In this document: positions 10,990 to 41,829 of the stretch, piece after piece | Numbering within the stretch: the stretch's first letter is position 1 | Layout of the letters: every line of letters begins with the position of its first letter | DNA from: an uncultured Candidatus Saccharibacteria bacterium | Lineage (GTDB): Bacteria; Patescibacteriota; Minisyncoccia; Phycocordibacterales; UBA9973 | Direction of reading: 5' to 3' | NCBI GenBank assembly: GCA_964500195.1 | Contig: CAZCND010000002.1 | Coordinates: 1 to 43,054, forward strand | DNA: 43,054 nt | Program-made: the position numbers and the translations under genes | Notes under the pieces: model-generated | Told to the model about the DNA's origin: nothing | What the model saw: the letters and a program-made list of their open reading frames with translations, nothing else | Database searches by the model: none

Positions 10990-13755
10990 ATGGAAGAATT
11001 AAGTTTTAAAGAAATCCCTAAATTTAAAAACCCCGAAGAAGAGTTGTCTTTTTTACGTGAGCGTTTAGCCGAAAAAGAGAAAGAGGTTCTATCTTCTAAC
11101 CAAGAATCATCCAGAGAAGAGTTGGCAAAAGAGGTTATTTCAGCTTATGAAAAACACCCCGCAGAAGAGGTTATGAAAAAAAGTAGCTTGTTGAGAGAAA
11201 AAGACAGAGAAGAGATAGTCTTAAGACTTCATCCAGAAACTCACGACAAAAAGATGGAAGAACTTTTGACTGTTGTTCTAGAAAAAGGTATTTCCAATGC
11301 ATTATCTTTGGTTGAAAAATTAAACAATCCACACATAGATGATGATTTTCATCGTTTTCTTGTCCAATATTTATCCAGCGTTGGAATAATTCCTGGATTA
11401 AAAGAACATAGCCCCCTAGAAAAAACACTAAAAATGAAACTTTTTGAAATAAGTTTACCGGTGGAAAATAATGATGATACTCACAAGAGAAGTTTGAAAG
11501 AACTATTGGGAGCAATGGAGCAGTTTTACTCAGGTATGTCTTCTGTATCAGAAGGGAAAAACAATAGTGAAGATAGTCGTTTTACGTTAGAAATTGCTTT
11601 GTCGGAGGATAGTAATAGTTTTGTTTTTTATACAGCTGTTCCAACAAGCAAGGCTGGTTTATTTGAAAAACTTTTGCTTGGGATTCACATGAATGCAAAG
11701 ATAATTGAAGCCCCAGATGATTATAATATTTTTTCTGAAAACGGATGTTCTGTTGGGTCCTATGCAGAACTAAAAAATAAAGCGGTTTTCCCTATAAAAC
11801 TTTATGATACACTCGATTATGATCCACTAAATATAATTTTAAATATATTTACAAAACTAAAAAAGAAGGGAGAGGGAGCCTCAGTTCAGCTAGTTGTTCA
11901 TCCAAAAGGGGATAGTTTAGTAAAGAAATATCAGAGTGTTTTAGAGCAGGTTAAAAAAGGAGTTTCTTTGAAAGACGCAACTGCTTCTTCTTTTAAACAA
12001 GTAAGTAAAGAAATTGGTTCTTTTTTAAAAGACTTTGTTTCTTCTTCTGAAAAAGATAAATTAAAAGAAGACAAAGATAGAGATAAAAAGGTAGATGAAA
12101 AAGCAGTTGAAAGTCTAAAAGAAAAAATAAGAAGCACTATCATGGAGGCAAATATTAGAATACTTGTCTCGGCCGAGGAAAAAGAAAGAGCAGAAAGTAT
12201 TCTGTCTGAGATAGAAGCTTCTTTTAATCAGTTTACAGAGGCAGATAAAAATGGTTTTAATTTTAAAAGGCCTAAGGGTGGAGATTTAGCTCGTCTTATG
12301 AGGAATTTTTCTTATCGTATTTTTGCTGGAAACGAAGCAGTGGACTTGAATTTAAAAGAATTGAGTACAATATTTCATTTTCCACAAGGTATTGTTTCTC
12401 CTCAACTAAAAGAAGCCCCTGCTGGAATTTCACCTGCTCCTCTTGATATAGAAGATAATGGATTGCTTTTGGGTATAAACAATTATCGGGGACAAGAGAC
12501 AGAAATTAGAATGTCTAAAGAAGATCGCTTGAGGCATCTCTATGTAATAGGGCAGACAGGAACAGGTAAAACGACTATTTTAAAGAATATGATAATTCAG
12601 GATATTAAAAATGGTGAGGGCTGTTGTTTTATAGACCCACACGGAACAGATGTCCAGTATATATTAGGACATATTCCTAAGGAAAGAATTGATGATGTTA
12701 TTTATTTTGATCCAGCATATACACCAAGACCAATGGGTTTGAACTTACTTGAATATGACCCTAAATATCCAGAACAAAAAACTTTTGTGATTAATGAGTT
12801 GTTAAATATCTTCAATAAGCTCTTTGACATGAAGACTGTTGGAGGTCCTATGTTTGAACAGTATTTTAAGAACAGTGCTTTTCTTGCCATGGACGATCCG
12901 AACGAACAGGCCACATTGCTTGATATTACAAGGGTTTTAACCAACGAAGAGTATCGCAATAGTCTTCTAGAAAAATGTCGAAACCCAATAGTTAAAGAAT
13001 TTTGGAAAAGTGCCTTGGCTGTTAAGGGAGAACAGTCTCTAACTGAGTTTGTGCCCTATATCTCTTCTAAATTTGATAACTTTATTTCCAATGATATTAT
13101 GCGACCAGTTGTTTTGCAGAAAGAATCCGTCTTTAATTTTAGAGAGATAATGGATAATAAAAAAATATTACTGGTTAATTTATCAAAAGGGAGATTGGGG
13201 GAAATAAACGCCAATTTAATAGGTCTTTTATTGGTTGGTAAAATTCAGATGGCTGCCATGTCTCGAGCTGATGTGTCTTATGAGCAAAAGATGAATGATT
13301 TTTATTTATACATAGATGAATTTCAAAACGTAACAACTGATTCTATAGCTTCAATTTTGTCTGAAGCTCGCAAATATCACCTATCTTTAACTGTTGCCCA
13401 TCAATATGTCGCACAGCTTGAAGAAGGGATAAAAAATGCAGTTTTTGGAAACGTCGGATCTATGATTGTCTATCGAGTGAGTCCAGAAGATGCTAATGTA
13501 CTTGAACCAAGATTAAAACCTATTTTTTCAGCTTCGGATATTCTGAAGTTGGAAAACTTTAATTCATATGTAAATATGTTAATAAAAGGCATGCCATCAA
13601 AACCATTTAATATGACTTCTCATTATAGTTTAGCCGATAGATTTGGCACAAAAAATAGTCCTGAAATGGCCGAAAAAATAAAGCAGTTGTCATATTTGAA
13701 ATATGGTAGACCACTTGAAGAAGTTGAAGAGGAAATTATGGAAAGATTTCATTAA
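10990..13755 (+). CDS. Large P-loop NTPase. C-terminal half is TraD/VirD4 (type IV coupling protein)/HerA-FtsK-like; the ~480-aa N-terminal region is uncharacterised
   Basis: Walker A GQTGTGKTT; Walker B FYLYIDEFQN; SLTVAHQY and VGSMIVYRV motifs typical of T4CP/TraG-D C-terminal ATPases. Confidence 0.7.
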   Translation: MEELSFKEIPKFKNPEEELSFLRERLAEKEKEVLSSNQESSREELAKEVISAYEKHPAEEVMKKSSLLREKDREEIVLRLHPETHDKKMEELLTVVLEKGISNALSLVEKLNNPHIDDDFHRFLVQYLSSVGIIPGLKEHSPLEKTLKMKLFEISLPVENNDDTHKRSLKELLGAMEQFYSGMSSVSEGKNNSEDSRFTLEIALSEDSNSFVFYTAVPTSKAGLFEKLLLGIHMNAKIIEAPDDYNIFSENGCSVGSYAELKNKAVFPIKLYDTLDYDPLNIILNIFTKLKKKGEGASVQLVVHPKGDSLVKKYQSVLEQVKKGVSLKDATASSFKQVSKEIGSFLKDFVSSSEKDKLKEDKDRDKKVDEKAVESLKEKIRSTIMEANIRILVSAEEKERAESILSEIEASFNQFTEADKNGFNFKRPKGGDLARLMRNFSYRIFAGNEAVDLNLKELSTIFHFPQGIVSPQLKEAPAGISPAPLDIEDNGLLLGINNYRGQETEIRMSKEDRLRHLYVIGQTGTGKTTILKNMIIQDIKNGEGCCFIDPHGTDVQYILGHIPKERIDDVIYFDPAYTPRPMGLNLLEYDPKYPEQKTFVINELLNIFNKLFDMKTVGGPMFEQYFKNSAFLAMDDPNEQATLLDITRVLTNEEYRNSLLEKCRNPIVKEFWKSALAVKGEQSLTEFVPYISSKFDNFISNDIMRPVVLQKESVFNFREIMDNKKILLVNLSKGRLGEINANLIGLLLVGKIQMAAMSRADVSYEQKMNDFYLYIDEFQNVTTDSIASILSEARKYHLSLTVAHQYVAQLEEGIKNAVFGNVGSMIVYRVSPEDANVLEPRLKPIFSASDILKLENFNSYVNMLIKGMPSKPFNMTSHYSLADRFGTKNSPEMAEKIKQLSYLKYGRPLEEVEEEIMERFH

Positions 13756-23670: not shown

Positions 23671-23675
23671 TAATG

Positions 23676-24057
23676 TGGAGATGGCGGGAATCGAACCCGC
23701 GTGCGGAGGGAACTCTTGTATAAATCTACATGTTTATTATGTTCATTTGGTTTAGATATTTACCCTAGAGAACATACAAAAAAAGTAAATACCGAGTTCT
23801 TAATTGTTAGAATCAATACCGAACAATTATTGATTCTTAACCCGATAAATTATGCCCATGATCTATATCGGATGTCTAGAAATGGACACTTGTTTGACCT
23901 AAATTTAGGCGAAAGCAAGAGCAAGGTTTCCAAAATAAGGAGACCCTACTTTAGCGACTTTGTTTACACTTAGTCTTTTAGAGGAAGTTTAAAAAGATTC
24001 CTCTACACTTTACATGCATATACAAGATGATTCTCTTCGTCGAAGCCGATCATCCCC
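23676..24057 (-). ncRNA. ssrA: tmRNA (SsrA), one-piece, CCA not encoded. Predicted tag AKVGSPYFGNLALAFA (resume GCT at 23955-23953, stop TAA at 23907-23905)
   Basis: 5' GGGGATGATCGGCTTCGACG; 3' GCGGGTTCGATTCCCGCCATCTCCA; acceptor stem with G3-U70; lies immediately downstream of smpB. Confidence 0.93.
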
Positions 24058-26969: not shown

Positions 26970-27043
26970 CCGCTTGTAGCTCAGTTGGTTAGAGCATCGA
27001 GCTTATACCTCGAGGGTCCCACGTTCGAGTCGTGGCAAGCGGA
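26970..27043 (+). tRNA. tRNA-Ile with genomically encoded UAU anticodon; CCA not encoded
   Basis: Hand-folded cloverleaf. Acceptor CCGCTTG/CAAGCGG; D arm GCTC-AGTTGGTTA-GAGC; anticodon arm TCGAG-CTTATAC-CTCGA; T arm CCACG-TTCGAGT-CGTGG; discriminator A. Confidence 0.85.
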
Positions 27044-27052
27044 CACGGTTTT

Positions 27053-34798: not shown

Positions 34799-35620
34799 AT
34801 GAAAAAAGAACTTATTACACCAGAATATATTAAGGGTTTATCTTATACGGATTTCGTGGGACTAATTAATCAGTGGAATGTATTGCCAGGTTCACACGTC
34901 ACATTATCGAAATGGACATGTTTTTCTGGGTTAAATAAAAATTCAAGACTTTTGGAAGTTGCTTGTACTACTGGTTTTTCATCTCGCGAACTCGCACTTC
35001 TCTCAGGCTGTAGCGGTGAAGGATTTGACCTTTCAGAAAAATCTATCAAAATGGCAGACTACAACAAGGAACAATATGCACCCAAAATTGATTTTTCATA
35101 TTCTGTAGCCGATGGATATAAATATAAATCTGATAAACCATTTACTCACATAGCAGTTGGTGCCTCTCTTGGTTTTTTTCCTGATCCAGCAAAAATGCTA
35201 GAAAGGTGCATCAGCATGCTTGAGGATGGTGGACACATTCTCGCTTCTCCGTTTTATGTGACAAAACCATTACCTCAAGCACTAGTTAAAAGAGCACAGA
35301 GAGTGTTCGATATCACTCCAACCGGGATTTCTTACAAAGAAATTATGAAATCGTACAACAAGCTTGAAGTGATTTTTGAAGAGCGGAACAGCTTAGTTCA
35401 AGAGACCAAGGAGGAGCTTGATTACTATTGCAAGTGCACCATAGACCGTGCATGCAAAATGCTTGATATCACGGATAAAAAGGTATACGAGGCTATGTAT
35501 AAAAGGCTTTACGAAGTAAAAAAGATGTCAAACGACCTACGTCCTTACCAGATGTACAGTATACTTGTCTTAAGGTACAGAAAGGCTATATATCCAAATA
35601 GATTTGTTGAGTTGTTTTAA
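34799..35620 (+). CDS. Class I SAM-dependent methyltransferase-fold protein
   Basis: Motif I LLEVACTTGFSS; acidic loop GFDLSEKSI; motif IV-like IAVGASLGFF. Confidence 0.7.
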   Translation: MKKELITPEYIKGLSYTDFVGLINQWNVLPGSHVTLSKWTCFSGLNKNSRLLEVACTTGFSSRELALLSGCSGEGFDLSEKSIKMADYNKEQYAPKIDFSYSVADGYKYKSDKPFTHIAVGASLGFFPDPAKMLERCISMLEDGGHILASPFYVTKPLPQALVKRAQRVFDITPTGISYKEIMKSYNKLEVIFEERNSLVQETKEELDYYCKCTIDRACKMLDITDKKVYEAMYKRLYEVKKMSNDLRPYQMYSILVLRYRKAIYPNRFVELF

Positions 35621-35624
35621 AAAC

Positions 35625-36143
35625 ATGATACTAACTGGAAGCAAAATTAAAGATGAAATAAAATCTGGCGACATCGTCATTGAGCCATTTTGCAATGAAC
35701 AAGTTAATCCAAACAGTTACAATTATCGACTTGGTTCTACTATAAAAGTTTTTAACGGATTCGACGGCGACAAGGCTAATTTTAAAGAGATAAAAATACC
35801 AAAAGACGGTTATGTTTTAGAGCCAAGGAAAATGTATCTTGCGACCACCAAAGAAGTAATTGGCAGTTCAAAGTATGCAATGTCCCTTATCGGCAGAAGC
35901 TCGATGGGTAGGTACGGTCTTTTCTTGCAAGTGTCAGCAAACCTTGGACATACTACTTCAAAACATAAATGGACTTTAGAAATTGTAGCTGCAAGGCCAA
36001 TAAAACTATATCCTGGCATGATAATCGGACAAGTTTCATTTTGGAAAAATTATGGCACAGTTAAAAAATATAATGGCAAATACGGTCATTTAAACCATCC
36101 TCAGGAATCATTTGTTCCCATAACTCAATACCAAAAAATATGA
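35625..36143 (+). CDS. dcd: dCTP deaminase family protein, paralog 1, canonical catalytic residues (ATG at 35625; the track start 35604 overlaps the upstream gene)
   Basis: GRSSMGRYG (Ser/Arg), WTLEI (catalytic Glu), YPGMIIGQVSF. Confidence 0.8.
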   Translation: MILTGSKIKDEIKSGDIVIEPFCNEQVNPNSYNYRLGSTIKVFNGFDGDKANFKEIKIPKDGYVLEPRKMYLATTKEVIGSSKYAMSLIGRSSMGRYGLFLQVSANLGHTTSKHKWTLEIVAARPIKLYPGMIIGQVSFWKNYGTVKKYNGKYGHLNHPQESFVPITQYQKI

Positions 36144-36679
36144 TACTAACAGGTAAAAAAATAATTGAGGAGTTTAAAAAAGGAAAAATTGATATTTCTC
36201 CTTTTGATAAGAAGAGAATAACGACAAACTCTTATGACTTATCCCTAGGACATAATATTGTTCGATACAAAACTGGTGTAATTGACCCAAAATGTAAACC
36301 CCAGCACGAAGAGATAATTATACCTGAAGAAGGTTTGGTGCTTGAGGCTGGAGATTTTGTACTAGGTCATTCAAGCGAGCGTATCGGCAGTGATTTTTAT
36401 GTTCCTATTATACATGGAAAATCTGGTACAGCTAGAATGGGATTGTTCGTACATGTCACTGCTGATTTAATAGATATTGGTTCGCACGGCGTCACAACCT
36501 TTCAACTGTATGCTACTCTTCCAGTTCGATTGTATCCAGGAATGCTTATTGCTCAAGTTAGCTTCTGGCTTCCTTTAGGGGATATCGTTTTATACAAAGG
36601 AAAGTATCAGAATAGCACTGGACCGCTACCATCTTTAACATATAAAGATTTCAAATACGATCTTTTTAAGAAGAAATAA
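36140..36679 (+). CDS. dCTP deaminase family protein, paralog 2, catalytic Glu replaced by Gln; ATGA overlap with paralog 1
   Basis: GKSGTARMG, TTFQL aligned to WTLEI, YPGMLIAQVSF; same MILTG.KI N-terminus as paralog 1. Confidence 0.75.
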   Translation: MILTGKKIIEEFKKGKIDISPFDKKRITTNSYDLSLGHNIVRYKTGVIDPKCKPQHEEIIIPEEGLVLEAGDFVLGHSSERIGSDFYVPIIHGKSGTARMGLFVHVTADLIDIGSHGVTTFQLYATLPVRLYPGMLIAQVSFWLPLGDIVLYKGKYQNSTGPLPSLTYKDFKYDLFKKK

Positions 36680-36772
36680 GATTTTCGATTTCGGGTTGAC
36701 AAAGTAACTATTTTATATTAGTTTGTCGGTAGTACTGTTCGTTAACAATCAACCAAATTAAGGAGGTGTATC

Positions 36773-38221
36773 ATGGCAAGAAAAAGTGAAAAGAAGAGGA
36801 CGAAAGCCCTCGAAATTGATCCACTTGCGTATCGCCGTGAGGCACCAAGAGGATCAGTTGAAGTTTGTGACCTAGACAGAGTACTCCATGGAGAAAAGAT
36901 CACCGTTGTTGGGAGGCTTATGCTTTCTGACAATACAGGTGAAATTTCCAAACTTGGAGTATTTGGCACACTGGATGGAAAGGAAGTTCTTACTCTCGAG
37001 AGAATCGAGGGGAATGGGCTATCAATTCCTGCATTCCTCATGCGTACACCAGAAAACATCGAGATAATGAACTCCGTTATCCACTACGGAGACGTCGTGA
37101 TGTTGGAGGGTGTAAAGCTCTGCATTTCAGGGGAAGATGTAGTTCTTGGAAACGGTATCAAGTTGCTTTCCAAAGCAACGGGTGATGTTTATGACAGCAA
37201 CGTTGATTTTCGTAAGAGATCAAATTTGTATGATCACAGACATCTTCAGTTGATTCAAAACCAAGGAAAGATTCTGCACTTTCGGAGATGCTCGATAGTA
37301 TTCCGCGCAATAAGGCAATTCCTATACAAGGAGGGGTATGATGAACTAAGCATGACTTTGCTTCAGAAAAACTTTGAAGCGGGTCTGGCTGATCCATTCG
37401 TAACACACGTTGCCCAACATGACAGGGATATGTATCTGAGATTGACATCAGAGCTGTTTCTCCGAAAATTGATGGTTGCTGGATTCTCGAAGGTATTTGA
37501 GATCGGTAAATCATTCAGAAATCAAGGGGCCACAGCCGACATGCTTCCTCAGTTTACAATTCTTGAACTGTATCGTGCGTATGCCAGCAGAGAAGAGATA
37601 GAAAACCTAGCAAAGAACATGATCTGCGAAGTTCTTGTTCAATTGTACGGGAGTCCGTCAATTCCCACTGCCAAAGGAGAGATAGATTGCTCGGGAGACT
37701 GGCCATTGTATGATTTTAAGGAAGAAATCGAGAAGTGTACAGGCTTAAGATATGACGAATCACGTCCTGTCGAAGAGTTGGTACACATTTTGGACAAGGC
37801 GGAAATTGCTCATCCTGCAAAGGTGAACAAATATACTGTGGCTACTGCCCTGTACTGCCACGTGATGTCCCACATCACGGGCCCCGCTTTCCTGAGGAAT
37901 CTGCCAGCCGCTCAATCTCCGCTTTTCAAGGTAAACGATGATGGGTCGACCGTTGATGAAACTCTTCTTGTTATTAACGGGATGCTTGTCGCTGACCTTG
38001 TTAATCCAGAGCGTGATCCTCGCCTTATCAGACAGCACATGGAGGAACAATTGACTTACCGCAAGGAAAGTCAAAACGATGGTGTTAACGAAGACATCAT
38101 CAGTGCAATGAAGTTCGGTCTACCTCCATGTAGAGGTATTGGAATGGGATTGGAGCGTCTTCTTATGCTTCTGCTAAACACGGAGGACATAAGAGATGTG
38201 GAACTCTTCCCTGTATTTTGA
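36773..38221 (+). CDS. Divergent class IIb aminoacyl-tRNA synthetase paralog, LysRS-like, with an N-terminal OB-fold region
   Basis: Motif 2 FRNQGATADMLPQFTILELYRAY (LysRS consensus fRNEG...HNPEFT..E.Y.AY); motif 3 GIGMGLERLLMLLL..IRDVELFP; AAGGAGGTG SD. Confidence 0.8.
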   Translation: MARKSEKKRTKALEIDPLAYRREAPRGSVEVCDLDRVLHGEKITVVGRLMLSDNTGEISKLGVFGTLDGKEVLTLERIEGNGLSIPAFLMRTPENIEIMNSVIHYGDVVMLEGVKLCISGEDVVLGNGIKLLSKATGDVYDSNVDFRKRSNLYDHRHLQLIQNQGKILHFRRCSIVFRAIRQFLYKEGYDELSMTLLQKNFEAGLADPFVTHVAQHDRDMYLRLTSELFLRKLMVAGFSKVFEIGKSFRNQGATADMLPQFTILELYRAYASREEIENLAKNMICEVLVQLYGSPSIPTAKGEIDCSGDWPLYDFKEEIEKCTGLRYDESRPVEELVHILDKAEIAHPAKVNKYTVATALYCHVMSHITGPAFLRNLPAAQSPLFKVNDDGSTVDETLLVINGMLVADLVNPERDPRLIRQHMEEQLTYRKESQNDGVNEDIISAMKFGLPPCRGIGMGLERLLMLLLNTEDIRDVELFPVF

Positions 38222-38278: not shown

Positions 38279-38850
38279 CAGGAAACCCCGCCCGCTTTTC
38301 TGCCTGAGCGTGCGGGGATGAATGGAACCATATACGTATCGCATTCTGATGTGATACGCTTGGTTGCATGAGAATCCGAAGCTTGAATCACTCTGTCTAC
38401 CAAACTCAATATCACCTCGTTTGGGGAACGTTGTATCGTAGAAAATATCTGAAAGAATATGTAAAGAATGAATTTGTCACTCACATCTACACTGTCATCA
38501 AAAAATATCCCACACTCCATATACATAGTATTAATGCAAACGATGACCATGTGCACCTTCAGATTGAAATACCACCAAGCGTCGCTATTGCTGCCGTCGT
38601 GAGGCGTTTGAAAGTGGAGACAAGTATTTACCTTAAGAAACGATTTAAATTTATACGTGAAATGTATATCGACGGCAGCATATGGAGTGTTGGGTATTTT
38701 GTCTCGACAATCGGACTGAATGAGGCGGTAATCGAAAAATATATTGCAAACCAAAATCGAAAAGACAAGGGTGTAACCACTAGCTTCGGGTTCTCATGAG
38801 ATCCAAGGAAACCCCGTCCATCTCTCGTCTGCGAGAGTGTACGGGGAGGA
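38279..38850 (+). mobile_element. IS200/IS605-family insertion sequence (tnpA only) with subterminal hairpins
   Basis: LE hairpin CCCCGCCCGC...GCGTGCGGGG (38286-38317) and RE hairpin CCCCGTCCATCTCTCG-TCTG-CGAGAGTGTACGGGG (38812-38846). Both are preceded by the identical GGAAACCCCG. Confidence 0.8.
38368..38799 (+). CDS. tnpA: IS200/IS605 Y1 (HUH) transposase TnpA
   Basis: YHLVWGTLYRRKYL, HUH motif DDHVHLQI, catalytic Tyr context WSVGYFVSTIG, EKYIANQ. Confidence 0.92.
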   Translation: MRIRSLNHSVYQTQYHLVWGTLYRRKYLKEYVKNEFVTHIYTVIKKYPTLHIHSINANDDHVHLQIEIPPSVAIAAVVRRLKVETSIYLKKRFKFIREMYIDGSIWSVGYFVSTIGLNEAVIEKYIANQNRKDKGVTTSFGFS

Positions 38851-38864
38851 CGTCCATTATATAT

Positions 38865-38900
38865 AAAAAAGGGGCTACAGACAGTGTCCATAGCCCCTTG
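38865..38900 (-). terminator. Terminator of the PheRS-like gene
   Basis: Minus strand AAGGGGCTA...TAGCCCCTT plus TTTTT. Confidence 0.75.
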
Positions 38901-38924: not shown

Positions 38925-40040
38925 TTACATGTACCCTCGATCTCCTTGATTTAGCTTAGGGTAGAGGCGCTGCATCCACCCATTGACCATCGCCTTCGGC
39001 AAAGAACTTTCCAGTGAACGGAATGTCAGTGTTACCACAACATTCTTTTGGTCTGGTCTGATACCGAGGTTTAGTCTCGCCTTTTCTGGAAGTTTATCAT
39101 AGGAAATTTCGGAGTACTCGATCTTCTCTATGAAAACGGCGTCTTGTCCCAGCTCATCGCGAATTTCTTCGCAGATGTCTTCTTCTGTTTTCTCAACAGA
39201 AGTAGAATACGACAGCACCCTTTTCGTTGCAGGCTGATCAGAGACGGTGACGAATTTTTCAAGATTCGCCATCTGACGCTTTATTCGAGGATCATCCGAT
39301 CTCAGAACACGAATGTCATCGATGCCTTTGATGATCATGACGAGTCGATCAAGACCCATACCCAGAGCGAGCCCTGAATACTCTTCAGGATCGAGACCAG
39401 CGTTTTTGAGAACAGTCGGATGGGCTTCGCCACATTCGAGAACTTCGAGCCACGAACCGTTAACAAAAACTTCCACCTCGAGACCCCGCATCGTGTAAGG
39501 ATGTTCAACTTCATTCGCTCGATATTTACATCCTGGAACAACACATTCCAGAATAGTTTCAACCAAGTGAATCAGGTCTGATCGGACGAAACGAGGTGAC
39601 CCCTGTTTTATTCGCCAGACATCCATTTGATGAGGCTCACCGCAATGAGTTTTATCGACAACGTCGCGTCGATAACACATTCCAGGCAAGACAACGACAG
39701 TATCGCCGATACCATTTTGAGAGGCTTTTTTGAGCCAACTCGGAATAGCTGACGAAGTGTGGGTACGCAAGACAGTATCTTCCGTAACATACCTCGTATA
39801 GCGAGAAGACCGCCCTGCATTATCTAACGGGAAGAGAAGGTCGTCGAAGTTTTCTTTTGATGAGACTTCCGGGTTCGAACGAACTTCCTCGACAACTGCT
39901 CCAGCATAGGATTTCTCCAGTGCTCGTCTTACGTTACCAACGACAATGTTGATGGCATGGATCCCATTCTTGGGATCAGTGAGGTCTGGGAGGGCTATAG
40001 AGGCCATCAGACGCTCTGGTGACATAACTTCTTTTTTCAT
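38925..40040 (-). CDS. Divergent class IIc aaRS paralog: PheRS-alpha-like catalytic core fused to a C-terminal FDX-ACB-like domain, with no N-terminal coiled coil
   Basis: NFDDLLFPLDNAGR, VLRTHTSS, motif 2 PGMCYRRDVVDKTHCGEPHQMDVW, motif 3 GLALGMGLDRLVMI. The C-terminal ~95 aa ends VVVTLTFRSLESSLPKAMVNGWMQRLYPKL, which resembles ferredoxin-fold anticodon-binding domains. Confidence 0.75.
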   Translation of the reverse strand: MKKEVMSPERLMASIALPDLTDPKNGIHAINIVVGNVRRALEKSYAGAVVEEVRSNPEVSSKENFDDLLFPLDNAGRSSRYTRYVTEDTVLRTHTSSAIPSWLKKASQNGIGDTVVVLPGMCYRRDVVDKTHCGEPHQMDVWRIKQGSPRFVRSDLIHLVETILECVVPGCKYRANEVEHPYTMRGLEVEVFVNGSWLEVLECGEAHPTVLKNAGLDPEEYSGLALGMGLDRLVMIIKGIDDIRVLRSDDPRIKRQMANLEKFVTVSDQPATKRVLSYSTSVEKTEEDICEEIRDELGQDAVFIEKIEYSEISYDKLPEKARLNLGIRPDQKNVVVTLTFRSLESSLPKAMVNGWMQRLYPKLNQGDRGYM

Positions 40041-40306
40041 GACCGTGTCTCCTTTTCTGTCTGTGCCGTGTCATTACTGACGTGGCTAGGTTTGAGTGAT
40101 ACTAACTTCCGATACTCCTCTAAGTGATCCCTACGCAGGACCGCTAGCCATCGGCCAGCTTTTGACTTATCAGAGTTGTTTGTAACCGCAAAAATCATCT
40201 CAAATGCGGCCGATGGGCTACTACTCTCATCCACTAAAGAGACGATTTTTTCGTCACTTAGTATGGAGGAGCATCGTGCCCTGATTTCTTGAGCTGATCT
40301 GATCAT
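40037..40306 (-). CDS. Hypothetical 89-aa protein, translationally coupled (ATGA overlap) to the PheRS-like gene; ATG at 40306 preferred over the track start 40360
   Basis: AGGAGG 9 nt upstream of the ATG at 40306; its stop overlaps the downstream start; no family recognised. Confidence 0.6.
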   Translation of the reverse strand: MIRSAQEIRARCSSILSDEKIVSLVDESSSPSAAFEMIFAVTNNSDKSKAGRWLAVLRRDHLEEYRKLVSLKPSHVSNDTAQTEKETRS

Positions 40307-40563
40307 AGCTTGATACCTCCTATCTTTAGTATTGTTAAAGAACAACACCCACAGGAACATCCTATAGGTACCCCATCATACATATTATTAATACAAATGT
40401 CAATCTTTTTTGGGGCACATTAGCCAATCAGAGGTTACCAACACCTACCACTAAGGGCGCTCTGGACTCCTGAGAGGTGTTGCGTCATTCCTTGTGTTGT
40501 ATGACAAACGCAACAACACAAGCGCCATTAGGGACTACGGCCAAAGTAGTAGTCCCCGTAAAG

Positions 40564-41829
40564 ATGAAATACTGCCTCTATGCGAGAAAGTCGACAGAGT
40601 CAGAAGAAAGACAAGTCCTTTCAATAGATAGCCAAATCAGCGAGATGCTCCAATTAGCCGATCGTGAGGGGCTTGAGGTGGTCACCATGAAGCGTGAAAG
40701 CCATAGTGCTAAAGAGACTGGTCAGAGACCAGTATTTAACGAAATGGTTGAAGAACTCAAACAAGAGAAGTTCAATGCAATCCTCACTTGGGCACCTGAT
40801 CGTATTTCAAGAAATGCAGGCGACCTTGGAAAAATAGTAGATCTAATGGATTCAGGTAAACTACATATAATAAGAACCTTCGGACAAACTTTTGGAAATA
40901 ATCCAAATGAGAAATTCCTTCTCATGATTCTAGGCTCACAAGCAAAACTAGAAAATGATAATCGAGGTATCAACGTGAAGCGAGGATTACGAACAAGAGT
41001 AGAGATGGGATTATGGCCTGGCATGGCACCACTTGGATATTTAAACCAAAAATTAATGGACAGGAAGTGTCAAATAGTAATTGATCCAGATAGAGCACCA
41101 ATCATTAAGAAAATGTTTGAGAAAGTAGTGTATGAACATTGGAGTGGTAGAAAGGTATATAACTGGTTACGATTTGATTTAAATTTCTATACTCGAGGAA
41201 ATAAACCCCTGACACTCTCAGGGGTTTATCGTATTTTTAATATGCCAATCTATTATGGACCATTTGAATATCCTAGAAATTCTGATAACTGGTATCAAGG
41301 AAGTCATACACCAATAATTACTCAAGAGTTATTTGAAAAAGCTCAAGCACAATTAAAGAGAGATAGGATTGTAAGAGAAAATAGAGAGTTCGCATTCACT
41401 AAACTGTTCACCTGCGGCATGTGCGGGTCAGGCATCACCGCCCAAGAAAAGTACAAAATACTCAAGGACGGTACGAACGCCAAGTACATCTACTATTCAT
41501 GCTCCAAGGCAAAGGACCGTGATTGCAAGAACAAATACATCCGAGAAGAGGAATTGATCGACGAACTCTTCAAGATTATCGACCAGGTGAATATCAACGA
41601 ACTTGGGATGCGCATGAAACTTGAGGAAGAGATTAAACGATTCAACCGACTACAGCGATTGGCAACCAAGGGTACACCAAAATACAATATCAACGAGGAT
41701 GAAATTAATACCCGGGAATACGCCAAGTATGTACTCAAGGAAGGCACTGCGCTCGAAAAACGAGAGCTTCTAGGACATCTAAGATCACGATTACTACTGG
41801 AAGACAAGAAGATTAGCCTGGTTCAGTAA
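40564..41829 (+). CDS. Large serine recombinase (resolvase domain, recombinase domain, zinc ribbon, coiled coil); ATG at 40564 preferred over 40477
   Basis: N-terminus MKYCLYARKSTESEERQ (catalytic Ser context), AILTWAPDRISRN, CGMCGS...YYSCSKAKDRDCKNKY zinc ribbon. Confidence 0.88.
   Translation: MKYCLYARKSTESEERQVLSIDSQISEMLQLADREGLEVVTMKRESHSAKETGQRPVFNEMVEELKQEKFNAILTWAPDRISRNAGDLGKIVDLMDSGKLHIIRTFGQTFGNNPNEKFLLMILGSQAKLENDNRGINVKRGLRTRVEMGLWPGMAPLGYLNQKLMDRKCQIVIDPDRAPIIKKMFEKVVYEHWSGRKVYNWLRFDLNFYTRGNKPLTLSGVYRIFNMPIYYGPFEYPRNSDNWYQGSHTPIITQELFEKAQAQLKRDRIVRENREFAFTKLFTCGMCGSGITAQEKYKILKDGTNAKYIYYSCSKAKDRDCKNKYIREEELIDELFKIIDQVNINELGMRMKLEEEIKRFNRLQRLATKGTPKYNINEDEINTREYAKYVLKEGTALEKRELLGHLRSRLLLEDKKISLVQ

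Follow-up and report, generated by a model that had tools for sequence, protein, structure and literature searches.

What does a single-chain relative of phenylalanyl-tRNA synthetase (PheRS) do in a bacterium of the Patescibacteria, and is the small protein encoded directly upstream its partner? The question is raised by a minus-strand gene at 38925..40040 of contig CAZCND010000002.1 (assembly GCA_964500195.1, uncultured Candidatus Saccharibacteria bacterium), whose 43,054 nucleotides are referred to below as the window. A first-pass annotation, made from the sequence alone, described the 371-amino-acid (aa) product as a self-sufficient, mitochondrial-type PheRS-like protein with possibly altered specificity, paired with an 89-aa carrier, inhibitor or immunity protein. 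According to the present analysis, it is a single-chain homolog of class IIc aminoacyl-tRNA synthetases (aaRSs) with the architecture of mitochondrial PheRS, and a member, from the candidate phyla radiation (CPR), of the already named but functionally unsolved family NF051887, "PheS-related mystery ligase SrmL". As for its function, the explanation that ranks first, with slightly less than even confidence, is an active synthetase-like ligase that would join a Phe-like aromatic amino acid to a tRNA-type acceptor. The 89-aa protein represents a real conserved family absent from the databases searched, and this family is not specific to SrmL.

Family assignment and domain architecture

Residues 36-257 match PF01409 (Pfam, E 3e-38), which confirms the PheS-type core and the PheRS-alpha signature segments recognized in the first-pass annotation. 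Among NCBIfam models, NF051887 is matched from end to end with 402.1 bits (cutoff 300; residues 18-366 on profile positions 2-349 of 349). Scores for TIGR00468 (bacterial PheS) and TIGR00469 (pheS_mito, monomeric mitochondrial-type PheRS) are far below the cutoffs (111.7 vs 237.45 and 128.8 vs 258.35 bits, respectively), so that the protein belongs to NF051887 and is not classed with ordinary PheS, an outcome for which the first reading had allowed. The sepS model yields only 20 bits (cutoff 381), and the PylS model is not matched. All of the signatures EPHQxDxW, HPYT, ExGE, SGLAxGxGLxR, and QKN occur in the window protein, and 101 full-length sequences covering all lineages show no or almost no variation in them. 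With actinobacterial, cyanobacterial, and rhizobial members of NF051887, SrmL of the window has in common EPHQ.D.W, HPYT, SGLA.G.GL.R, and the C-terminal tail, although the Patescibacteria clade to which it belongs is only 38-50% identical to the top-scoring members. All sampled members pass the family cutoff. The name SrmL, used in RefSeq and UniRef for actinobacterial members, presumably stands for pheS-Related Mystery Ligase.

Among solved structures, sequence comparison ranks bacterial PheS alpha subunits first (E 1e-26, 97 bits) and human mitochondrial PheRS next (E 1e-20, 77 bits, ~25% identity), the core thus being nearer to the former. SrmL shares with bacterial PheS motifs 2 and 3, the RTHTS segment, and the pocket-floor Ala, but has no motif 1 proline (HPAR is replaced by NAGR), no coiled coil, and no PheT partner. 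The alignment with E. coli PheS begins at PheS residue 94, and SrmL therefore lacks the coiled-coil arm, in agreement with the earlier observation. Bacterial PheRS is normally an (alpha-beta)2 heterotetramer. Neither pheT nor a second PheS-like gene is found anywhere in the window, which extends the previous remark that no pheT is adjacent, and pheT does not adjoin SrmL in any of the 79 genome loci compared.

Sequence profiles and a predicted structure confirm the C-terminal part (residues ~266-366, 38943..39245) as a ferredoxin-fold anticodon-binding (FDX-ACB)-like domain. In bacteria this is the B8 domain of PheT, whereas in SrmL it is added to the catalytic core (residues ~18-257, 39270..39989, PheS-type class II fold with motifs 2 and 3). 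Pfam does not detect FDX-ACB in the window protein even at E<=1. It does report PF03147 for many actinobacterial members and, among 16 close relatives, for 11 (best E 9e-9), and a profile of the domain searched against PDB matches PheT B8 (E 0.0036) and mitochondrial PheRS (E 0.03). In the AlphaFold2 model (alignment of 34 sequences; mean predicted local distance difference test, pLDDT, 93.6; predicted template modelling score 0.89), residues 272-363 form a beta-alpha-beta-(insert helix)-beta-alpha domain. The top Foldseek matches of this model all belong to human mitochondrial PheRS (3CMQ; 381 columns, E 6e-29, TMq 0.77), the closed state of which it resembles, while bacterial PheS chains cover the core only (~255 columns). 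The proposal of a catalytic core fused to FDX-ACB in one chain, as in mitochondrial PheRS, is thus upheld by profile matches, by the Pfam hits of relatives, and by full-length superposition; of the term "self-sufficient synthetase", the single-chain architecture without a beta subunit stands, and self-sufficiency itself may only be suggested by it. The FDX-ACB domain also carries a family-specific insert, Y..LP..A..LG...QKN (residues ~314-333), which is absent from PheT B8, from mitochondrial PheRS, and from the single-chain CPR protein described below.

Active site and related paralogs

Active-site residues were mapped with the E. coli PheS alignment and a nine-sequence alignment, and invariance was counted in the 101 sequences mentioned above; numbering and roles of Thermus PheRS residues follow the literature. 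Invariant in all 101 sequences are R77, R83, R124, R125, D126, Q138, D140, W142, H180, Y182, T183, E202, G204, A225, R232, Q331, and N333. Functional PheRS residues are retained at the following positions (Thermus first, SrmL second): His178/Ser180 of RTHTS correspond to H94/S96, motif 2 Arg204 to R124, Gln218 to Q138, pocket-floor Val261/Ala314 to T183/A225, and motif 3 Arg321 to R232.

The wall of the amino acid pocket differs. Phe258 and Phe260 of the Thermus alpha subunit, the residues that stack on the substrate ring, align with H180 and Y182, so that F..F of PheS is H..Y in every one of the 101 sequences. In addition, Glu220 is replaced by D140, FHQ by PHQ, Gly221 and the next residue by V/W142, HPAR...TFW by NAGR...TRY, and GxGM by ExGE. 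SrmL consequently has neither the ring-recognition Phe pair nor the FHQxEG motif of bacterial PheS (H180/Y182 and PHQMDV instead). The deviations listed in the first-pass annotation (HPAR to NAGR, FHQ.EG to PHQMDV, and GFAFG to GLALG) are all real in the E. coli PheS alignment. Judged from these alignments, the pattern of invariance is that of a working enzyme with a specificity of its own, not of a decaying copy. The suggestion of altered specificity is therefore sound as far as the pocket is concerned, which departs from PheS at positions invariant throughout the family; the substrate may have changed as well.

These changes can be arranged into a graded series. Canonical PheS has FHQxEG and FxFT; a 380-aa single-chain PheRS-like CPR protein (locus L003, 15955-17094, minus strand), encoded 7 kb from SrmL, has FHQxDG and FPYT (FHQIDG in its own sequence); a second type, found in locus L004, has FHQxDVW and HPYT; and SrmL has PHQxDVW and HPYT. 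The L003 protein scores 236.9 bits with pheS_mito (cutoff 258) and 83 bits with a pheT C-terminus model, its own C-terminus matching that of PheT; the region upstream of its gene is cut off by the end of the locus. By sequence it lies between PheS and SrmL and qualifies as a candidate for a monomeric PheRS of mitochondrial architecture in free-living bacteria. It already has the Asp and the Tyr; the His, Pro, and Trp changes are confined to SrmL. Two or three SrmL-type paralogs are found together in some CPR genomes (L004:14441-15700, L006:6778-7998 on the minus strand, and L012:9252-10379). These extra copies comprise forms of 406-419 aa with an N-terminal extension and FHQIDVW, as well as a tandem, more degenerate 375-aa copy.

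Distribution and genomic neighborhood

A scan of one genome per species places SrmL relatives in 475 species from at least six phyla. Patescibacteria members are 57-93% identical to the window protein, heterocystous cyanobacteria of the Nostocales (Calothrix, Scytonema, Fischerella, and Chlorogloeopsis) ~47%, and many Actinomycetes (Micrococcus luteus, Kocuria, Brevibacterium, Nocardia, and Kitasatospora) ~41%; further relatives occur in Rhizobium tropici, Gemmatimonadota, and Polyangiaceae. Within Actinobacteria, identity across orders is ~80%. Plasmid copies are found in Glutamicibacter and in Azotobacter, the latter among IS630, IS3, HNH, and toxin-antitoxin genes, and one plasmid copy adjoins a chloramphenicol exporter gene. 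A full-length SrmL-type gene with GEPHQMDIW and HYYT also lies among hypothetical phage genes of a 634-kb uncultured phage (LR745206.1; L165:8007-9086). Hosts such as M. luteus, R. tropici, Calothrix, and Scytonema presumably carry canonical pheST, and in one CPR locus (L014) a canonical pheS lies 70 bp from SrmL (TIGR00468 262 bits, cutoff 237). Given the plasmid copies and the presumed pheST of the hosts, SrmL is an accessory, horizontally mobile paralog rather than canonical PheRS. The protein is accordingly no novel orphan: it falls into a curated family with at least 475 species, plasmids, and a huge phage. A broad association with phages was considered and rejected, as only two IMG/VR contigs contain SrmL and one of these, having a permuted tmRNA (transfer-messenger RNA), is probably cellular.

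All-against-all clustering of the genes in the 79 genome loci reveals no family-wide conserved neighbor. The only synteny is lineage-specific, namely LysRS-like, dCTP deaminase, and methyltransferase genes in CPR and an unannotated 428-aa gene in Nostocales. No tRNA gene is present within 8 kb of SrmL in 77 of the 79 loci, and no dedicated tRNA was found. A radical S-adenosylmethionine (radical SAM)/SPASM gene lies beside SrmL in five CPR loci (L005, L006, L007, L017, and L018), some of which also contain a GNAT and a possible amidohydrolase gene, both judged from sequence. This neighbor is seen neither in the window nor outside CPR, and could reflect local synteny.

The srmL operon and the small protein

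The small ORF (open reading frame) occupies 40037..40306 on the minus strand and overlaps srmL by the ATGA at 40037-40040, as the first-pass annotation described for both ORFs. A sigma-70-type promoter (TTGACA-17 nt-TATGAT, 40375..40403, 11 of 12 consensus matches) is followed by a 5' leader hairpin of 13 pairs (40344..40372), which begins about at the expected transcription start and has the core CCUAUAGGA-UGU-UCCUGUGGG, G-U pairs included. The conserved leader motif GTTCTTTAACAA (40332..40343) comes next, 10 nt upstream of the Shine-Dalgarno (SD) sequence. This strong SD, AGGAGG at 40321..40316, had been noted before; it stands 9 nt ahead of the ATG and is kept in all leaders. The SD of SrmL, AAGGAG (40049..40054), lies within the 3' end of the small ORF, 8 nt ahead of the SrmL ATG, where it encodes part of the conserved T-E-K-E tail of the small protein. 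Just past the srmL stop, an intrinsic terminator (38869..38899) consists of a 14-bp stem with 7 GC pairs and a T run. Promoter, hairpin, terminator, and the embedded SD therefore define a single transcription unit, with the leader, the small ORF, and srmL in this order. A 107-aa version of the small ORF from the ATG at 40360 would begin inside the leader hairpin, and orthologs begin at the 89-aa Met. A search of sequencing runs did not find the locus in any RNA-seq run.

The small protein has five predicted helices (residues 5-69) and a disordered tail (AlphaFold2 pLDDT 79). Pfam, NCBIfam, PHROGs, and PADLOC contain nothing that matches it, and its model matches no PDB structure at E<1 in Foldseek. 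An exhaustive HMMER search returns 33 representatives, ~25 of them genuine proteins of 77-125 aa; the long "repeat" homologs (P0247 and P0256) were discarded as low-complexity false positives. A word-indexed search finds ~119 clusters, all annotated as hypothetical. Conserved motifs are SSSP[ST]AA, KAGRWLAVLRRDY, and the tail ...TAQTEKE. Together with the operon signals, these clusters substantiate the earlier view that the small ORF is conserved and co-transcribed with srmL.

A reverse metagenome scan for the small gene, based on an alignment of 8 sequences, gives 80 loci, 78 of which are informative for the gene downstream. This gene is SrmL in 26 loci, TrpRS passing TIGR00233 in 16, AsnRS-like in 11, TyrRS passing TIGR00234 in 9, transketolase-like in 8, and inositol-3-phosphate-synthase-like (INO1-like) in 3, followed by a SagB/YcaO fusion and a radical SAM gene (2 each), a possible carbamoyltransferase (1; judged from sequence, with no family match), and an unknown gene (1); one locus ends with the contig. 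The second gene is thus an aaRS or aaRS-like in 62 of 78 loci and usually overlaps the small gene or starts within ~20 nt of it. In one annotated example the small gene and the transketolase gene form an isolated two-gene unit. A neighbor-joining tree of the small proteins partly follows the type of partner, with exceptions. The small protein is therefore the first gene of a portable module of Patescibacteria whose second gene is usually an aaRS, and the most economical reading is that it acts as a regulator or cofactor common to these operons. Several other roles were considered and set aside. A toxin-antitoxin or defense module does not agree with the empty PADLOC result and with housekeeping-type partners, of which TrpRS and TyrRS pass equivalog cutoffs. 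A leader of a ribosomally synthesized and post-translationally modified peptide is suggested by the radical SAM and YcaO partners, but these make up a small minority (4 loci), and the embedded SD of the downstream gene largely accounts for the conserved tail.

The shared leader and the LysRS-like gene

Nearly all small-gene units share the TTGACA-17-TAnnnT promoter, the hairpin, the box G-Y-W-C-W-T-T-M-A-C-A-A (named GYTCTTTAACAA), and AGGAGG. The box also precedes a LysRS-like gene of the window, and CPR SrmL genes without the small ORF often show the leader features directly, as judged by eye. Across 48 leaders with 38 unique stems, the hairpin has 7-13 bp and starts at about the transcription start. 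Stem sequence varies with pairing kept, several Watson-Crick pair types being present at every position along with G-U pairs. Because the stem varies while the conserved helix of the small protein does not, the stem probably acts as an RNA structure rather than as a sequence-specific operator. No Rfam family matches the leader. The hairpin was also considered as an attenuator; the window copy is terminator-like, but the U-rich box is mostly 3-12 nt past the stem, which makes this role unlikely.

The LysRS-like gene (36773-38221, plus strand) is convergent with srmL and has its own leader at 36686-36775, with a TTGACA promoter, the box GTTCGTTAACAA, and AGGAGG, but no small ORF. It encodes a divergent class II protein (254 and 217 bits vs LysRS cutoffs of 468 and 428), whose best PDB match is Geobacillus LysRS (173 bits), and 7 CPR genome loci show it in synteny with SrmL. 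Within the window, the only exact match to the box is in the small-ORF leader, and the only match with one mismatch (36737-36748, plus strand) is upstream of the LysRS-like gene. A strict composite search for promoter, box, SD, and start in ~120 CPR loci and the window finds 42 small-ORF starts, 10 LysRS-like starts, and nothing else. By these sequence criteria, the leader resembles a cis-element that aaRS-type operons of this lineage have in common. To our knowledge, no aaRS regulation has been described in CPR bacteria, and the module of small protein and leader appears to be new.

Between the convergent terminators of the LysRS-like gene and srmL, the window contains an IS200/IS605 tnpA (38368-38799, plus strand). 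The same gap measures only ~110-130 bp in the closest relatives (L001-L003), so this insertion is specific to the window.

Competing explanations for SrmL

Residues that bind ATP and the alpha-amino and carboxyl groups are invariant, and SrmL most likely still forms an aminoacyl-adenylate from an L-alpha-amino acid. With Phe/Phe of the wall changed to His/Tyr, Glu to Asp, a new Trp, and the small floor residues kept, the preferred substrate is probably a Phe-sized aromatic amino acid, although not necessarily Phe itself; a hydroxylated or otherwise polar Phe analogue is an example. That the FDX-ACB domain is retained and highly conserved speaks for tRNA or a tRNA-like RNA as the acceptor. Several points weigh against this picture. 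The substrate is deduced by homology mapping onto PheRS residues of Thermus and E. coli, and His and Tyr could still pack against a phenyl ring. The L003 protein already has the Asp and the Tyr, and these two changes alone therefore do not exclude Phe. The FDX-ACB domain, modelled in the closed state, could be kept for folding or autoinhibition instead of RNA binding. The small protein is otherwise commonly paired with bona fide TrpRS and TyrRS, which fits SrmL as the Phe enzyme of the set in CPR. Finally, literature searches turned up nothing about SrmL proteins.

The main rival is that SrmL is a genuine monomeric PheRS charging Phe onto tRNAPhe, i.e., the Phe member of an aromatic aaRS set in CPR, and elsewhere a back-up or inhibitor-resistant copy spread by plasmids. 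In its favor, the fold agrees with that of mitochondrial PheRS over the full length, the contacts for adenylation and for the alpha-amino group are preserved, and the floor of the pocket (T183/A225) is that of PheS. The stand-alone plasmid gene, once by a chloramphenicol exporter, resembles the travel of resistant aaRS copies, and the ~80% identity across actinomycete orders points in the same direction. This explanation retains considerable weight, since TrpRS and TyrRS genes scoring above their equivalog cutoffs are driven by the same small-protein/leader module. It is nevertheless doubtful: both PheRS equivalog models are failed by a wide margin (112 vs 237 and 129 vs 258 bits), both ring-stacking Phe residues are invariantly replaced across six phyla, and NCBI curators left the function open. 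Moreover, CPR genomes with two or three SrmL-type paralogs alongside canonical pheS or the PheRS-closer monomer speak for diversification.

Clearly less probable is an aaRS paralog working outside translation, which would transfer its amino acid to a protein, a carrier, or a metabolite in the manner of EpmA/PoxA, amino acid:carrier-protein ligases, or AsnA. The patchy, mobile, stand-alone distribution would suit such an enzyme, as would the invariant Arg/Tyr cluster (R77, Y81, R83, and Y84) in place of HPAR...TFW of PheS, and the radical SAM/SPASM genes, sometimes with GNAT and amidohydrolase, that adjoin SrmL in five CPR loci. However, FDX-ACB is strongly conserved together with its family-specific insert, and no conserved acceptor gene accompanies SrmL across lineages. 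The pairing expected of an amino acid:carrier-protein ligase is not observed either, since the small protein shows no match to an acyl carrier protein (ACP)-like fold and is missing from most SrmL loci.

The proposal that the 89-aa protein is a dedicated carrier, inhibitor, or immunity partner of SrmL now seems very unlikely. The ATGA overlap and co-transcription are real, the pair recurs in 5 genome and 26 metagenome loci, and small-protein phylogeny partly tracks the downstream gene. The co-occurrence survey thus supports a recurring pair, but also shows that the small gene is mostly found elsewhere. It is present in 5 of 79 SrmL genome loci, all from close CPR relatives, and absent from the other 74, including all non-CPR loci and every cyanobacterial, actinobacterial, proteobacterial, plasmid, and phage copy; conversely, 52 of 78 informative small-gene loci have another gene downstream (TrpRS, TyrRS, AsnRS-like, transketolase-like, INO1-like, radical SAM, or YcaO among them). 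A carrier or immunity role gains no support from the five-helix fold, which resembles neither a carrier nor any solved structure in Foldseek, nor from PADLOC or Pfam. A carrier was considered because of the conserved Ser30-Pro31, with Ser30 at a helix start; this pair alone is not diagnostic, and the fold search gave nothing ACP-like. The last explanation, a pseudo-synthetase that has lost catalysis and serves regulation or structure instead, can practically be dismissed, as nothing but the departure from the PheS consensus speaks for it, whereas none of the 101 sequences deviates at the motif 2 and 3 arginines, His/Ser of RTHTS, Gln138, or 12 further pocket residues.

Other features of the window

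The window is a piece of a Patescibacteria (CPR) chromosome with SecY, NDK, FtsH, RecG, acetate kinase, tmRNA, and tRNA-Ile(UAU) genes; its closest relatives are from CPR, and the locus is known from bioreactor and wastewater metagenomes. Divergent from the operon promoter, a large serine recombinase gene with a GTG start (40477-41829, plus strand) encodes resolvase, recombinase, and Zn-ribbon domains. None of the 79 SrmL genome loci has this gene, 2 of the 80 small-gene loci do, and synteny with relatives stops at the promoter. Two tandem overlapping dCTP-deaminase-like genes (35604-36143 and 36140-36679, plus strand; ~40% mutual identity) are kept as a pair in six CPR loci, and only the second passes the dCTP_deam cutoff. 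The tRNA-Ile (26970-27044, plus strand) has the anticodon UAU, which is unusual, as AUA is mostly decoded in bacteria by a lysidine-modified CAU tRNA. The tmRNA (23675-24057, minus strand, 131 bits) encodes the tag peptide VNKVAKVGSPYFGNLALAFA. Just past the SecY/Adk/Map-type block, a 921-aa protein (10990-13755, plus strand) has a single, weak Pfam match to a type IV secretion coupling protein (TrwB) domain.

Relation to known systems and implications

In comparison with human FARS2 (3CMQ and 3TUP), SrmL likewise consists of one chain with a PheS-type domain, a C-terminal FDX-ACB, and no editing subunit, but has H/Y for the ring-binding F/F, Asp for Glu, PHQ for FHQ, and the extra insert in FDX-ACB. 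EpmA/PoxA, amino acid:carrier-protein ligases, and the specialized class IIc enzymes PylRS and SepRS resemble SrmL as accessory class II homologs of patchy occurrence with remodelled pockets; SrmL has no dedicated tRNA, carrier, or target gene beside it. Only the Patescibacteria clade of SrmL has the upstream small ORF, the leader module, and extra SrmL-type paralogs.

A broader picture, which is speculative and improbable in its entirety, can be drawn from these features. Patescibacteria would possess an undescribed aaRS control or cofactor module, made of a strong promoter, a covarying 5' hairpin, the GYTCTTTAACAA box, and mostly a coupled ~89-aa five-helix protein, which drives TrpRS, TyrRS, SrmL, and, without the small ORF, LysRS-like genes. 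SrmL would then stand among the aromatic aaRSs, either as the working PheRS of reduced genomes or as a synthetase for a fourth, Phe-like aromatic amino acid, and together with the L003-type monomer it would form a free-living bacterial PheRS lineage of mitochondrial architecture.

The amino acid and acceptor of SrmL would either add a natural aaRS specificity or show a mitochondrial-style monomeric PheRS in free-living bacteria. The latter, if true, bears on the origin of the organellar enzyme as a fusion of a PheS core with PheT B8. CPR offers two testable handles, namely the graded series of paralogs and the shared leader/small-protein module that links SrmL to TrpRS, TyrRS, and LysRS-like genes, and this module may represent a new mode of aaRS gene control.

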